Virus record (IMG/VR): IMGVR_UViG_3300025237_000001 | Coordinates: 64,001 to 128,000 of that record | DNA length: 64,000 bases | Source: a virus | Direction: 5' to 3' (one strand) | In this document: positions 6,686-33,615 of the stretch, piece by piece | Layout: each line of letters begins with the position of its first letter | Position numbering within the stretch: the first letter of the stretch is position 1 | Made by a program: the position numbers and the translations under genes | Notes under the pieces: model-generated | What the model was told of the DNA's origin: nothing | The model's input: the letters and a program-made list of their open reading frames with translations, nothing else | Databases searched by the model: none

Positions 6686-6717
6686 TATAAATATAACTGA
6701 AAAGATTAATATTTATA
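6686..6717. promoter_or_regulatory. Back-to-back putative late promoter boxes (TATTTATA)
   Basis: TATTTATA on the minus strand at 6686-6693 and on the plus strand at 6710-6717, between divergent genes. Confidence 0.55.
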
Positions 6718-6731
6718 TATAAACTGATTTT

Positions 6732-13414: not shown

Positions 13415-13454
13415 TTAAAAGTAATTAAAACATATTTATATATAAACCTATTTT

Positions 13455-17263: not shown

Positions 17264-17287
17264 ATTAGATATTTATAATAAAAGATT

Positions 17288-18464: not shown

Positions 18465-18494
18465 AAAAAGAGACTCAAATTTGAGTCTCTTTTT
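18465..18494. terminator. Bidirectional terminator (perfect 30-bp palindrome)
   Basis: AAAAAGAGACTCAAATTTGAGTCTCTTTTT between convergent neck and polymerase genes; contains the polymerase TGA. Confidence 0.8.
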
Positions 18495-21400
18495 CTTCTA
18501 GTACATGTTTGTAATCTTCGATATCTAATTCAATTCCAGCTAATTTTAATTCAGCTCTAATGAAACTAGCTTTAGCATCATCTTTAGCTTTCTTAGCTTC
18601 AACCCATATATGAGTTAACCAAGTCTCGAAAGTCTTATCTTTCTTATATTTAACTGTTGGGTAGAACGGTACTCGTTGCTTCGCCCAAGGTTCATACTTT
18701 AGTATATCAGTTACTTTACATAAATCAATATCCCAAAGTTTAGATTTAATATAAATATTTGGGGTTCCATTTTCATCATCGTGAACAACAAACTCACCCA
18801 TATTAGCGAATGGTTTAGGTATTTCACTACTTTCTTTCATCAATTGAATTTCATCCCATTCTAAACGCTTCATAATTTCAGTCGTTCTTTTTCTCTCATG
18901 AGCCATTCCTTCAATTCTAGCAATTCTCATACGCTCATGATAATCCGTTTGTATCCATTCCCAATTCATGTTTAATTCAACAAGGTTATTTGGTTCTTTA
19001 TTAACTCTAATCCAAAACTCAATTTCCTTATCTTCCATGTCCATTAACTCACTCATTGTATTTTGGTCACCATCTTTAAAAGCAGTACCTCTATCCATTT
19101 CAGTGTCTTTTTTTGTAAAGATTTTTCTTTCAGTTAATTCCATTTCTTTAGTTTCCTTGTTCTTAACCATGTCCATTAGAATTGCCTCCCTAATTTCAGG
19201 TTTGAAACAAACTAATAATGCGTGAATTCTATTATTGAAAGCCGCTAAATACTTTGGTACGTTATATTCGTCAGTTGTCAAATCAGGGTTATTCTCTATT
19301 TGGTCTGTTGGTATTACTTTACATTGAATCTTAACAGTTCTATCACCAGTTTCTTTATCAGTAATAACTTTAACATCACCATGAGATTTAACACTACCTA
19401 TGTTAACATAGTAAATTGTATCACCTAAATTAGATTTGATACCATCTTGCATTATCAATTCCATATGAGCTTTTCTAGCTTTAAATGAACCTGATTTTGT
19501 TTTGGTTTTCATATCTCTTAAATACGAAGACACTGTATCCTTAACATTAGACTTCGAAGCTATTTTAAGCAATGGAATTCTAAAATTGTAGATGTCATCT
19601 ACTGTCTTGTTATATAACTGAACGAACTTATCTCCTTCACCATTTAAAAGATGTTCAATTCCTATGGCTAAGAAGTCTTCAATATATCCTGGCATTTTAG
19701 ATGACTTAATCGTATTCCCAACCAATTTAATTTTACCATCAATTAAGTTAGCATAATTCTTTCTAGAGAAGTTGATGGTAGACTCACAGATATCATCAAT
19801 ATCTAGACCCATTCTATCAATCATAAATAATTCGTTGAACTCAGCAACAACTGCGTCTAATCCTACAAGAGTATTACCTTTATCAGGTTCAGTAAACCTA
19901 TGAGTACCAAGAGGCACATATGAGTTTTCATTGATATTATCGGGGATGGCAAAGTTAAATCCATCCGTATCCCCTACAAGAGGTCTGAAATCTAAATCCA
20001 TAAAGAATTTAACCATCAATCTCAAGTATTGTCTACCTCTACAGGTAGTTTCCTCAGCAATATTAGTATCTCCCCATGGAAATATATTGGGAGCACCCAT
20101 CGAACCAAAGAATGAATTCGCTAAAATCTTAATTGGTAATTGTTTCTTATCGTACATACTAACTAAAGCAGTCTCTTTTGCAATTTCCTCATTTAACATG
20201 TCTAAATCTTCTTTAGACATTGTATCACCAGTCTTTTCTTTCAATTCTTTTAAACCACTCAACACACCTTTATGTTTATTCATAAGGTTCTTGAATTTAT
20301 CCCTTGTATTTGCAATATACGTTAAGAAACCTTTCATCGCACCAGTAATATCAGTGTCAGGAAAAATATCGTGAGTAATCTTAATATTAGGGTATAAGGC
20401 AGCAAAATCCAATTTTGCGACATTTTTAGCATATCCAAGTTCTAATACTCTTGAGAGTCCACCTGTAAATGTTTTTCTTGGTTTTGTTGCTGGAACAGCT
20501 AATCTATTCTCGTATGACCAAGCTAACATAATTAATTTCCAAATACCAGCAGTACCCATCGTTGTTGAACGCATGTACGTTGTAGGAATAATCTTAGATA
20601 GTAAGAAAGATGCTTGATTGTAAACACCATCCACTTGTTCTGTTTCCCATAAATCATCTAATAAATAACGTCTGATAATAATATTACCTTTAACAACCTC
20701 ATAACCTTCTTTTAAGGGCTTTTCTTCACTTATTGGGTAGTAAGTACCATCAGTATCATTAAAAGCGTAATCAGTTACCTTATCGTTCCAAATTTCGAAT
20801 ATTTTATTACCTTCTACATACACACGATTGGCTTTGTTAAGTTTTGAGTATTTTGTAATATACTTTAACCCAGCACTTTTAATGTTTGAGTTAATCGCTT
20901 TGGCTCTACGTACTGCGTGCCAAACATCGATTATATTATAACCCCACATTGTAGTTTGCTTATAGAATTCACTTTCACCACCTAACTTGATGCTTTTGTC
21001 AACTCTTCTAATTTTAGAACCACCTTTCTTATCAAGTGTCTTTGCAGCAATTTCAATGTCTAATCCGATAATATCACATCTTGTGAATATGAAACTCCAG
21101 TCAAAGTTTTCAGAGTTATATCCAGCAATAGTGTCAGGTTTCAACGTATCTATAATGTCAAACATTTTAAGTATAGCGTAAGCTTCGAAATCTTTTAATT
21201 CTTGCTTAGTACCTTCTTGTGGAACTTCTATAATTTCTTCAAAACCTCTATTATCTTTAATTCCAATTTGGAATATCTTAGCATCTTTAAGTCTAATTGG
21301 TTCACCAGCAACATCAAACTCATATAATTTAGTTAAATCTTCTCCAGTTCCCATACGACTTTTAACCTCCAAAATATCTTCTTGTGATAGAAGTGTACCT

Positions 21401-21933
21401 TTAGGGTAAAGACCAGTTGTTTCTAAATCAAATTGTAATCTATGAATATCATTATAATCTTCCATTCCTTTGAACAAACGCTTTCCTGATGCGATTAAAT
21501 ATTGTTCCACTGGATTTATGGCTATGAACATACTTCTGTGACGTTCACCATAAACATCGATACCACCTTCTTTGAAGAAATTGAGTACTTTAGTATAAGA
21601 ACCTTTGGTTTTAGCCATGTATTTGTAACCCGAAGCCATTCTTTTAGGTTCGGCTTCATCTGGCATTGAAGATTTTAGTTTTGTAATTACGATGCCGTAT
21701 TTCTCAGCAGCTTTTTTGATAAGAGTTCGTTTACCGCCATACATTATTTTGGTAACTTCTTCTTTAAACCATATAAATGATGTAAGTGCATCTTTTGATA
21801 TGAACTTTCCTCTTTCAGGGTCATTGATTATAAGCGAAACTTCAGCACTCCCATAAGGAATCTCAACACCTACAATATATTTTTTTTGATTTCTACCTTC
21901 TAAAAACCTAGAAATTACATCCTCATTAATCAT
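18475..21933 (-). CDS. polB: Family B DNA polymerase with 3'-5' exonuclease
   Basis: FDLETTG (ExoI), YNSENFD (ExoII), DFAALYP (A), KILANSFFG (B), GDTDG (C). Confidence 0.93.
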   Translation of the reverse strand: MINEDVISRFLEGRNQKKYIVGVEIPYGSAEVSLIINDPERGKFISKDALTSFIWFKEEVTKIMYGGKRTLIKKAAEKYGIVITKLKSSMPDEAEPKRMASGYKYMAKTKGSYTKVLNFFKEGGIDVYGERHRSMFIAINPVEQYLIASGKRLFKGMEDYNDIHRLQFDLETTGLYPKGTLLSQEDILEVKSRMGTGEDLTKLYEFDVAGEPIRLKDAKIFQIGIKDNRGFEEIIEVPQEGTKQELKDFEAYAILKMFDIIDTLKPDTIAGYNSENFDWSFIFTRCDIIGLDIEIAAKTLDKKGGSKIRRVDKSIKLGGESEFYKQTTMWGYNIIDVWHAVRRAKAINSNIKSAGLKYITKYSKLNKANRVYVEGNKIFEIWNDKVTDYAFNDTDGTYYPISEEKPLKEGYEVVKGNIIIRRYLLDDLWETEQVDGVYNQASFLLSKIIPTTYMRSTTMGTAGIWKLIMLAWSYENRLAVPATKPRKTFTGGLSRVLELGYAKNVAKLDFAALYPNIKITHDIFPDTDITGAMKGFLTYIANTRDKFKNLMNKHKGVLSGLKELKEKTGDTMSKEDLDMLNEEIAKETALVSMYDKKQLPIKILANSFFGSMGAPNIFPWGDTNIAEETTCRGRQYLRLMVKFFMDLDFRPLVGDTDGFNFAIPDNINENSYVPLGTHRFTEPDKGNTLVGLDAVVAEFNELFMIDRMGLDIDDICESTINFSRKNYANLIDGKIKLVGNTIKSSKMPGYIEDFLAIGIEHLLNGEGDKFVQLYNKTVDDIYNFRIPLLKIASKSNVKDTVSSYLRDMKTKTKSGSFKARKAHMELIMQDGIKSNLGDTIYYVNIGSVKSHGDVKVITDKETGDRTVKIQCKVIPTDQIENNPDLTTDEYNVPKYLAAFNNRIHALLVCFKPEIREAILMDMVKNKETKEMELTERKIFTKKDTEMDRGTAFKDGDQNTMSELMDMEDKEIEFWIRVNKEPNNLVELNMNWEWIQTDYHERMRIARIEGMAHERKRTTEIMKRLEWDEIQLMKESSEIPKPFANMGEFVVHDDENGTPNIYIKSKLWDIDLCKVTDILKYEPWAKQRVPFYPTVKYKKDKTFETWLTHIWVEAKKAKDDAKASFIRAELKLAGIELDIEDYKHVLEEKETQI

Positions 21934-21950
21934 AATTATTATCTATTTTA

Positions 21951-21983
21951 TGCAATATAACTACATTTTGACCCAAAAAACAA
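21951..21983 (-). promoter_or_regulatory. Putative early/middle promoter of the DNA polymerase gene
   Basis: TTGTT-N23-TTGCA with AATGTAGT; same geometry as 53056 and 55157. Confidence 0.6.
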
Positions 21984-22044
21984 GGGTTTTGTCATATTTT
22001 TTAAAATAAATTACTGTAAGCCAGGTTATGTCATATTTATTTGT

Positions 22045-22899
22045 ATGACAAAAGATATAAAATGTAACACAAATAATATCCATGATTTCATGGAAAATTA
22101 TAAATCAGGTTTTAATAAAATTAAATCAGAATATGAAGTATTTGAATACTACGATTTTGAAAGAGAAATTGTAAATTTGATTAATGATAATCGTTTTTCG
22201 ATTATATTAAAAGGTAGACAAGTTTTTGTGAGTACGATTTTAGCTACTTATACTGCTTGGCAAGTTTTAAATGGTAAACAGATTGCTTATTATAGTCATA
22301 ATAGACATATGTCTAAACATTTTTTAACTAAAGTAAGAGCGATATTAATGAGTTATGGTGCAGAATTTGAATGTGATAATCAAATTTACATTAAATTGAA
22401 AGGTTTAGGTTCGATAAAAGGTTTATGCACCCCAACAGAGTTTTGTAGTCACACATTTGATGAAATAATCTATGATGAAGCCGCATATATTAATAGGTTT
22501 AATGAAGCTTTAAGTATTGGGACTTCAATTATTGCAACAGGTGGTAAAATTATTTTAGCTTCTACACCTAATGGTCTGGAAAAATTTTTTTATACATGGC
22601 AAGGTAGTGAAGTTGGTGATAATCCTTTTAAAAGGATTAAAGTCACTTATAAAGATGTTCCTATATATGATGAAGCGTGGGCTGAAGAAATGAAAAGGAT
22701 TATGAATTATAATAAAAGGTGGATTGACCAAGAACTTCATGCTGAATTTATACCAGCATTAAAAAATAATAAAAATAAATTAATTCAATTTAGAATTGAT
22801 AAAGATTTGAATTTAAAATTGTTAGAAAAATTAATAGAGAAAGATGTTAATATTTCAACCTATATGCGAGATTTAATTCTCAAGGATGTGAATAATTAA
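22045..22899 (+). CDS. Terminase large-subunit-like ATPase domain (no nuclease) fused to a C-terminal RHH domain
   Basis: IILKGRQVFVST, IIYDEAAYI, LASTPNG, DQELHAEF, then KLIQFRIDKDLNLKLLEKLIEKDVNISTYMRDLI. Confidence 0.75.
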   Translation: MTKDIKCNTNNIHDFMENYKSGFNKIKSEYEVFEYYDFEREIVNLINDNRFSIILKGRQVFVSTILATYTAWQVLNGKQIAYYSHNRHMSKHFLTKVRAILMSYGAEFECDNQIYIKLKGLGSIKGLCTPTEFCSHTFDEIIYDEAAYINRFNEALSIGTSIIATGGKIILASTPNGLEKFFYTWQGSEVGDNPFKRIKVTYKDVPIYDEAWAEEMKRIMNYNKRWIDQELHAEFIPALKNNKNKLIQFRIDKDLNLKLLEKLIEKDVNISTYMRDLILKDVNN

Positions 22900-23235
22900 T
22901 TCATCCCTTATTGGTACCAATAGGGTTCCCGAACCATCGTTAAAGATTATTTTGAATTCACCAACGAATGTGCCAGCTTTTCTAGTTTCTTTTGCTGAAA
23001 ATTGATATCCGATGAAATATTCTTCACCGTTACAATCACTTGAAGGGTCTTTAAGAATACATAAACCTTCCTTACCACCTATTCTTTTAACGCCAGTGCT
23101 AGTGTCGGTCATACAGAATGTAATTACAGAGTTTTGTATCATATCGTGGAACTTATCGTACTCATTTCTTCCATCGTTAATTAATTCCATCTTTAAGATA
23201 GGTAATGTTGCAGTTTTATTTATGTAAAAATCCAT
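22873..23235 (-). CDS. Small beta-rich structural protein (BppU N-terminal-like)
   Basis: FYINKTATLPILKMEL...YQFSAKETRKAGTFVGEFKIIF. Confidence 0.5.
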   Translation of the reverse strand: MDFYINKTATLPILKMELINDGRNEYDKFHDMIQNSVITFCMTDTSTGVKRIGGKEGLCILKDPSSDCNGEEYFIGYQFSAKETRKAGTFVGEFKIIFNDGSGTLLVPIRDELIIHILEN

Positions 23236-33389: not shown

Positions 33390-33545
33390 TTATGATTCCC
33401 CATATAGGTCTTTAGGTTTTAAACACGCTTCTTTTATTAGTTTCTCAACAAATCCAAACATTTTAAGTCCATTCTCATTACAATAATCTTTTAAAATTTT
33501 GTGAGTTGGTGGTGTTATTTTAAGGTTTTTACTACGTTTCATCAT
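33390..33545 (-). CDS. Small ribbon-helix-helix DNA-binding protein
   Basis: Start trimmed to MMKRSK; KNLKI beta strand, TPPTHKILKDYCNENG helix, LKMFGFVEKLI helix. Confidence 0.65.
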   Translation of the reverse strand: MMKRSKNLKITPPTHKILKDYCNENGLKMFGFVEKLIKEACLKPKDLYGES

Positions 33546-33554
33546 TCTTTTACT

Positions 33555-33615
33555 ATAAGTATGACAAAAGGTAGACAAAAGTCATACTTATTATGATGTA
33601 TTACATACATCATAA
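33555..33615. promoter_or_regulatory. Two inverted repeats in the RHH / sheath divergent region
   Basis: ATAAGTATGAC-N15-GTCATACTTAT (33555-33591) and TTATGATGTA-N5-TACATCATAA (33591-33615). Confidence 0.6.

Follow-up and report, generated by a model that had tools for sequence, protein, structure and literature searches.

A terminase ATPase relic joined to a ribbon-helix-helix domain, probably a self-repressed accessory protein of marine phages

Why should a tailed phage with a complete packaging motor of its own encode another terminase-like ATPase domain, one that lacks the nuclease and ends in a DNA-binding fold known from autorepressors? The question is raised by a single gene in a 64,000-nucleotide stretch of viral DNA (the window), positions 64001-128000 of the 197-kb IMG/VR viral record IMGVR_UViG_3300025237_000001. 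The gene occupies positions 22045..22899 of the plus strand, starts with ATG and encodes 284 amino acids (aa). We use X as a working name for its product, a pseudo-terminase joined to a ribbon-helix-helix (RHH) domain. Coordinates are those of the window, except that G000:C1 designates the record and L-numbers the loci of relatives. We give a probability of roughly 55% to the reading that X is an optional, self-repressed accessory protein, whose terminase-ATPase relic acts by mimicry on a partner of the terminase.

The open reading frame (ORF) reported by the first-pass annotation of this DNA is present, and the ATPase motifs that it listed align to those of T4 gp17 or of the phage's own terminase. 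Residues 1-236 (22045..22752, plus strand) resemble the ATPase domain of terminase large subunits. Within them, residues 26-236 match the PHROG family phrog_2, "terminase large subunit" (E 3.1e-16), and residues 33-223 match T4 gp17 in a sequence search of the PDB (E 4e-10); the whole of X matched Pfam at chance level only and NCBIfam not at all. The AlphaFold2 model of X has a predicted local distance difference test score (pLDDT) of 95, and its top match in Foldseek is the ATPase domain of T4 gp17 (2o0j; E 8e-17, template-modelling score 0.72), with a root-mean-square deviation (rmsd) of 2.7 A across 243 columns. From this model we are confident that residues 1-236 adopt the ATPase fold of T4 gp17-type terminases. 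Three of the motifs are readily placed: IIYDEAAYI aligns to MIYIDECAFI of T4 (Walker B), ASTPNG to TTTPNG of T4 (motif C), and QELHAEF to QELDVSF of the phage's own terminase. The reading of KGRQVFVST as a nucleotide-binding motif holds only in part: it aligns to the P-loop of T4 (SRQLGKTT), but the loop is not intact, having Phe in place of a Gly that all 52 nearest full-length terminases share. YDFE falls on the adenine-binding Gln (DYQ in T4), also present in 52 of these 52 proteins, so that the replacement of this residue by Glu was correctly seen.

The catalytic set of this domain was compared between 81 family members and the 52 nearest full-length terminases, at the positions numbered 39, 56, 61 and 145 in X. 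X has E39 where every terminase has the adenine-binding Gln (52/52) and F61 where every terminase has the P-loop Gly (52/52). It keeps K56, the Lys with which the P-loop begins (51/52), which we take to be a lambda-like deviant Walker A, and E145, the Walker B Glu (50/52). The 52 terminases and the phage's own share the P-loop K-x-R-Q-x-G-x-S-T, in which the Lys opens the loop and there is no G-K-[ST] motif. The full set of Q39, K56, G61 and E145 is found in 50 of the 52 terminases and in none of the 81 members of the X family, where erosion follows two main patterns, E-K-[HYFN]-E (that of X itself) and Q-[HSQ]-G-N. Other residues of the domain, R58, Q59, D144, S173 and E230, are near-invariant across the family. 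Because no member holds the full set, X is probably a pseudo-ATPase, in which the fold and some surfaces would still be under selection. The sensing of ATP proposed at first is weakened, since X has lost both the P-loop Gly and the adenine-binding Gln. Yet some observations weigh against complete inactivity: X retains the P-loop Lys, the Asp-Glu of Walker B and the Ser-Thr of motif C, and half of its family has a conserved His in place of the P-loop Gly, so nucleotide binding, or even slow hydrolysis, may persist.

X has no RNase H-like nuclease domain. The protein instead stops at residue 284 within the RHH domain (residues 243-284; 22771..22896, plus strand), which in the AlphaFold2 model comprises an extended strand at 243-252, with the segment KNKLIQFRI, followed by helix A (253-266) and helix B (270-282). 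The tails of the family match RHH models of Pfam, namely CopG_antitoxin in 15 members (best E 3.4e-5), NikA-like in 12 (5.8e-6) and RHH_1 in 3 (2.1e-5); that of X itself reaches E 0.063 with CopG_antitoxin, below the cut-off. A profile of the C-terminal region gave weak matches in the PDB (best E 0.034, 2kke; HP0222 at 0.29), and the isolated RHH model had no Foldseek match with E below 3.8. When the tail was folded alone and compared with VIA-align, named RHH proteins occurred throughout the 50 listed matches (Z 5.6-3.3, rmsd 1.0-3.9 A). NikR led them (Z 5.6, rmsd 1.4 A, 43 residues), and DinJ, CopA, RelB, PutA, omega, Arc, ParG and NikA were among the others. All these Z-scores are below about 8, a level described by the tool as usual between unrelated arrangements, and the structural match therefore leans on the uniformity of the list, the rmsd and the coverage.

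Two copies of residues 238-284 were modelled as a symmetric dimer with an antiparallel ribbon, with a score of 0.73 against 0.06 for the best control; in the benchmark of this score, 20 of 30 solved homodimers attain this mark, against 1 of 23 proteins with single-chain structures. The runs agreed in at least 95% of contacts (which include 247-249, 247-247, 248-248 and 277-277), with pLDDT of at least 84. Since RHH dimers are familiar to the model, the pass may in part reflect likeness to solved RHH dimers, and is to be read as likeness rather than proof of binding. The RHH domain is also the most conserved block of the family (R250, S271, Y273, R275, L277, I278, D281): R250, in the strand, is kept in 80 of the 81 members, and S271, Y273, R275, L277 and D281 are near-invariant in helix B. 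In the structures of Arc and MetJ, DNA is read by one face of the ribbon. By analogy, R250 and the Gln, Ser or Asn at position 248 would lie on this face in X, which would fit the invariant TGTA and ACA arms of the sites described below. Topology, the Pfam matches of the family, the VIA-align list and the dimer model thus bear out the suggestion that an RHH tail, predicted to be dimeric, stands in place of the nuclease.

The same fusion recurs in many related phages. A word-indexed search returned nine short relatives of X, and an exhaustive profile search returned proteins of 255-335 aa, in about 90 clusters at 50% identity, whose match spans the full profile, tail included. Full-length terminases enter the latter search from about E 1e-38 and match positions 1-228 only; a search for related loci from a small alignment mainly recovered such full-length proteins. 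The clusters come from environmental, largely marine, metagenomes, and a protein 100% identical to X is present in a public protein collection; among 50,697 records of cultured phages there was no short form, and matches end around residue 240. In a maximum-likelihood tree, one branch separates 81 short proteins from 52 full-length terminase ATPase domains, with a support of 99 in the Shimodaira-Hasegawa-like approximate likelihood ratio test (SH-aLRT). By this tree the X family is one old clade of single origin. In a few relatives the RHH tail has been lost or exchanged; these forms fall at three or more points within the clade, so that on the same phylogeny the tail is ancestral to the family. 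A large and conserved family of short proteins with a single origin rules out that X is a recent truncation or a pseudogene.

The phage also encodes a complete terminase. This protein of 621 aa (G000:C1:30344-32209), encoded directly upstream of the portal gene and about 54 kb away from X, has the P-loop KPRQAGVST and the Walker B motif MDEAAF. Pfam matched only its N-terminal ATPase part, and motifs of nuclease type (ILASDVARGDGEDSS and HDDLLMAL) were recognized by eye. Over the ATPase domain, it and X share 29% identity. The presence of this intact two-domain protein rules out that X is one half of a split terminase with its nuclease encoded elsewhere. A third "terminase" match (G000:C1:55663-56118) belongs instead to a PhoH-like P-loop ATPase of 249 aa (G000:C1:55484-56233; L003:1321-2070, minus strand), with a weak cross-match to the terminase profile. 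Many related full-length terminases are 900-990 aa long (P0069, P0076, P0090, P0092, P0096, P0099, P0108, P0110, P0122 and others), including the two that are closest to the phage's own (961 and 969 aa); in some of them the match falls in two stretches, suggestive of inteins or of another kind of large insertion within the ATPase domain.

What, then, would the RHH domain bind? All the RHH-bearing loci that could be retrieved (12/12) have two TGTAnnACA sites at the start of the gene, in the layout TATTTAT, 1 nt, TGTAnnACA, N10-15, TGTAnnACA. The paired sites are kept down to 25-30% protein identity with X, with differing flanking genes. The pair is exact in 10 of the 12 loci, spaced by 19-24 bp, and the other two have one exact copy and one with a single mismatch; an exact TATTTAT box is present in 10 of 12. 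At X, this promoter-like box (22034..22040, plus strand) lies 1 nt before the first putative operator site and 4 nt before the ATG. Site 1, TGTATGACA (22042..22050, plus strand), includes the start codon, and site 2, TGTAACACA (22063..22071, plus strand), covers codons 7-9, at 21 bp, or about two helical turns, from site 1. The first-pass annotation had put the DNA target at 21940-22050; these two sites, rather than the whole spacer, are the likely target. Since the pair occurs once in the 197-kb record, over the start of X itself, it is probably an autoregulatory operator, and negative autoregulation is the simplest reading of it. Lone TGTAnnACA sites are not enriched (43 observed versus 48 expected), which rules out a genome-wide regulon motif. 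Among four RHH-less relatives, three lack the paired sites and one has a decaying copy. As the sites overlie the codons of the disordered N-terminal peptide MTK..KCNTN, this peptide may be conserved for its DNA rather than for its protein sequence.

Two considerations weigh against this account of the operator. With only about 56% of the genome in the record, the missing part may hold further binding sites. The paired sites can also base-pair with each other in RNA, the predicted hairpins being significant in two of four loci (z -3.2 and -3.5), and the element could act at the level of the mRNA. We do not favour this weaker alternative because each site is a palindrome by itself, changes at the central bases are not compensated, and the hairpin predicted at X (z -1.25) is no better than those of shuffled sequences.

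The box itself is not peculiar to X. TATTTAT occurs within 40 nt upstream of 45 of the 220 genes of the record, versus about 4.5 expected; it precedes X, the terminase, the neck gene and large structural genes, whereas the genes for the polymerase and the SNF2 helicase lack it. It is the reverse complement of the core of the T4 late promoter, with examples in the window at 6715-6721, 13438-13444 and 17270-17276. Its distance to the ATG falls mostly in two classes, 1-4 nt and about 11-17 nt, of which the shorter would yield leaderless mRNAs.

Natural deletions reveal that X is optional. In close relatives, whose gp13-like protein is 87-88% identical, the two genes that flank X here nearly abut and scars of X lie between them, with at least three distinct left-hand breakpoints. 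A first scar has 39 bp in place of window positions 22053-22869 (L101-103, L129), whereas 22101-22871 are lost in a second (L105-107) and 22027-22868 in a third (L104). All three end on the right at the stop codon of the overlapping gene, which encodes 120 aa. A complete relative of 353 kb has only the real terminase, with an 81-bp spacer in the place of X, and a complete relative of 360 kb has only an RHH-less form, inside an SNF2 operon. Judged from these genomes, X is dispensable and has been lost repeatedly; an essential role in packaging is therefore disfavoured, and an accessory role, or one in conflicts, fits better. Because the RHH-less forms lie within SNF2 operons and lack the operator, the distribution suggests a division of labour, with the ATPase-like domain as payload and the RHH domain in charge of control and dimerization.

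We can now state the favoured explanation. The RHH domain of X would dimerize and most likely bind the two TGTAnnACA sites over the start of its own gene, 1 nt past the TATTTAT box, which would hold X at a low, fixed level by negative autoregulation. The N-terminal domain would be the working part, with the terminase ATPase fold in the absence of the full catalytic set and of the nuclease. Because these have been lost, X probably neither pumps nor cuts DNA. It would more likely act by molecular mimicry, binding whatever usually binds the ATPase domain of a terminase. Candidate partners are the packaging motor or the portal, of its own phage or of a competing phage or satellite, and a host immune sensor of terminases.

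How does such a protein compare with known systems? X and T4 gp17-type terminases (Terminase_6N; 2o0j, 3cpe) share the fold of the ATPase domain and, within it, the Arg-Gln of the P-loop, the Walker B Asp, the Ser-Thr of motif C and the QE..F hinge motif. Unlike them, X has the RHH tail and lacks the RNase H-like nuclease, the P-loop Gly and the adenine-binding Gln. It further differs from large terminase subunits in being dispensable, in lying away from portal and head genes, and in coexisting with a separate real terminase. A small terminase subunit is no better a counterpart, since X is about 54 kb from the large terminase gene and dispensable in relatives.

The closest described counterpart is T4 vs.8, itself uncharacterized. 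Like Ksap1 and Ksap2, vs.8 is a stand-alone phage protein that resembles the terminase ATPase and has no known function; all three activate Avs2 and fit its pocket, and a possible anti-defence role was suggested for them (PMC13601566; PMC11564622). Like X, vs.8 is short, has the terminase ATPase fold but no nuclease domain, comes in addition to the real terminase and is restricted to certain lineages (T4-like ones in its case). Unlike X, it has 219 aa, no RHH domain, a place in an early operon, and canonical Walker A (GGRQSGKS) and Walker B (IIDE) motifs; its Walker A and B motifs were reported to be conserved (PMC13601566). Comparison of X with vs.8 by hhalign gave a probability of 43% (E 2.4e-4, 114 columns), and vs.8 has no supported position in the tree (branch length 3.56). 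The first-pass annotation knew of no described system with the architecture of X. This stands for the fusion of ATPase and RHH domains, which was not found described in the literature or as a family model, but not for stand-alone ATPase look-alikes, since vs.8, Ksap1 and Ksap2 are described. The ESM Atlas gives the X family only automatic cluster names ("terminase N-terminal domain").

These look-alikes lead to a first specific role for X, an entirely inferential one that we regard as unlikely: X could be an immune decoy that occupies a sensor of terminases (Avs1-3, Upx) without activating it, leaving the real terminase unseen. EcAvs2 recognizes the ATPase domain via terminase-bound ATP plus a bridging ATP, and Ksap1, Ksap2 and T4 vs.8, the suggested anti-defence proteins, bind in the same pocket (PMC13601566; PMC11564622). 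X has lost residues of the ATP site while keeping the fold, and erosion of this site would keep Avs2 from being triggered through ATP-mediated recognition; the two independent erosion patterns might then be, with equally low probability, footprints of escape from such recognition. That X is an accessory, sporadically lost and self-regulated single gene also fits. However, a sponge is expected at high dose, yet the design of X looks self-limiting; the known look-alikes activate Avs2 instead of blocking it; and X had no match to PADLOC or anti-defence families.

An equally doubtful role, which the first-pass annotation had already raised, is that of a dominant-negative inhibitor of packaging: X would enter the terminase ring of a co-infecting relative or satellite, or occupy its portal, and so stall its packaging, with autorepression keeping X under the level that harms its own phage. 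An ATPase fold with near-invariant R58, Q59, D144, S173 and E230, an incomplete catalytic set and no nuclease would suit such an inhibitor. The tight autoregulation fits a product harmful in excess, and the optional distribution is typical of genes involved in competition. On the other side, this scheme does not explain how the phage's own motor is spared, its terminase being only 29% identical to X, and it gives the RHH domain no use except dose control and dimerization.

That X serves packaging itself is less probable than either of these roles. It would be a new kind of small terminase, an adaptor that binds the unique paired site, recruits the real terminase and marks the start of packaging. 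The paired site is indeed unique in 197 kb and lies inside the gene of X, and pac sites often lie within small-terminase genes, as in P22 and SPP1. X shares the TATTTAT box with the terminase and structural genes. Moreover, no T4 gp16-type small terminase was detected in the record (Pfam PF11053), and the candidates encoded upstream of the terminase (134, 154 and 409 aa) had neither family nor PHROG matches; small terminases are hard to detect, which makes this apparent absence weak evidence. Against an adaptor stand three or more separate deletions of X among close relatives and its absence from the complete 353-kb relative, the existence of RHH-less relatives, and the distance of about 54 kb to the terminase and portal genes.

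Least likely of all is an ordinary transcription factor whose RHH domain controls other genes, such as the divergent polymerase gene, and whose ATPase-like domain senses nucleotides: the blocks of the spacer are conserved with relatives, the RHH domain is the most conserved part of X, and a TGTATTACA site and a 12-mer shared with the start of X lie near a second RHH gene and the sheath promoter (33557-33605), but the 197 kb contain no second paired site and no excess of single ones, the polymerase gene is a neighbour in this lineage only, the decaying residues are precisely those that bind nucleotides, and RHH-less forms persist.

The second RHH-like gene is a small ORF of about 52-62 aa on the minus strand, in the region 33390-33610, divergent from the sheath gene. 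At its start there are an inverted repeat, AAGTATGAC-N15-GTCATACTT, and the 12-mer GTATGACAAAAG that it has in common with the start of X. The nearby TGTATTACA site lies within the palindrome ATGATGTATTACATACATCAT, at about 33593-33613.

The self-repression proposed for X has well-known parallels. X shares the RHH fold, with a predicted dimeric ribbon, with NikR, PutA, RelB, DinJ, CopA and omega/ParG, and its candidate sites have the classic layout of RHH autorepressors, with palindromic paired sites over their own promoter. The RHH domain is C-terminal in X and not N-terminal as in fused RHH regulators (NikR, PutA), and its partner, a terminase ATPase relic, was not found in described RHH proteins. 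An analogy, and only that, can be drawn with self-repressing anti-defence proteins of the Aca type, which likewise join a DNA-binding autorepressor module to an accessory payload under their own promoter and occur sporadically. AcrIIA1 is such a fusion of a helix-turn-helix (HTH) domain with an Acr. The payload of X differs in type from those of the Aca-type and AcrIIA1 systems. RHH and HTH domains also occur in anti-defence candidates of archaeal viruses (PMC11065993). Overall, X combines two known kinds of protein, terminase-ATPase look-alikes and RHH autorepressors, and what is new are the pseudo-enzyme and the candidate operator.

The genomic setting of X varies between lineages. Here, its divergent neighbour is a family B DNA polymerase gene (18475..21933, minus strand); this divergence, which the first-pass annotation had noted, is real at this locus but is a feature of this lineage only. 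The spacer between them (21934..22044) holds the blocks TGCAATATAACTACATTTT and CAAAAAACAAGGGTTTT, conserved with relatives; each occurs once in the window, which rules them out as general promoter elements. An 18-nt direct repeat, GGTTTTGTCATATTTTTT / GGTTATGTCATATTTATT, lies upstream of X at 21985-22002 and 22024-22041, 39 bp apart. It is specific to this window, and L004 has a comparable repeat of 24 nt, 41 bp apart; the promoter region may have been duplicated. On the other side, the convergent gene of 120 aa (22873..23235, minus strand) overlaps the final 27 nt of X, has no family match, and is kept in every relative, including those that lost X.

In other lineages X is found beside glutaredoxin and SNF2, primase or RNA-ligase genes, and in most of them it stands alone, its neighbours being early or replication genes of the opposite strand. 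The SNF2 helicase adjoining X has 617 aa here and 978-988 aa in some relatives (L013:10888-13824, L007:12181-15144, L108:16169-19135); a faint LAGLIDADG match in one relative suggests that the long copies probably carry an intein or a homing-endonuclease insertion. The record as a whole, with genes for a tail sheath, a gp13-like neck protein, a family B polymerase and an SNF2 helicase, is 56% complete according to CheckV. Given this value and complete relatives of 353 and 360 kb with terminal repeats, we read it as part of the genome of a marine jumbo myovirus, a distant relative of T4.

The gene for the large terminase subunit is regarded as a hallmark of tailed phages, present in a single copy. 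Automatic pipelines label members of the X family as terminases or fragments thereof, and this can mislead terminase phylogenies and estimates of genome completeness. The domain of a motor ATPase has here been recycled widely, in some 90 clusters, into what appears to be a non-motor accessory protein with its own candidate DNA switch. X also bears on a question raised in 2024-2026, the role of the look-alikes vs.8, Ksap1 and Ksap2 and the reason why immune sensors see them. To this question the family brings a series of catalytically eroded variants, natural deletion alleles and a precise candidate operator. Were X to be an immune decoy, it would be the first example of an anti-defence protein whose origin is the target of the immune sensor itself.

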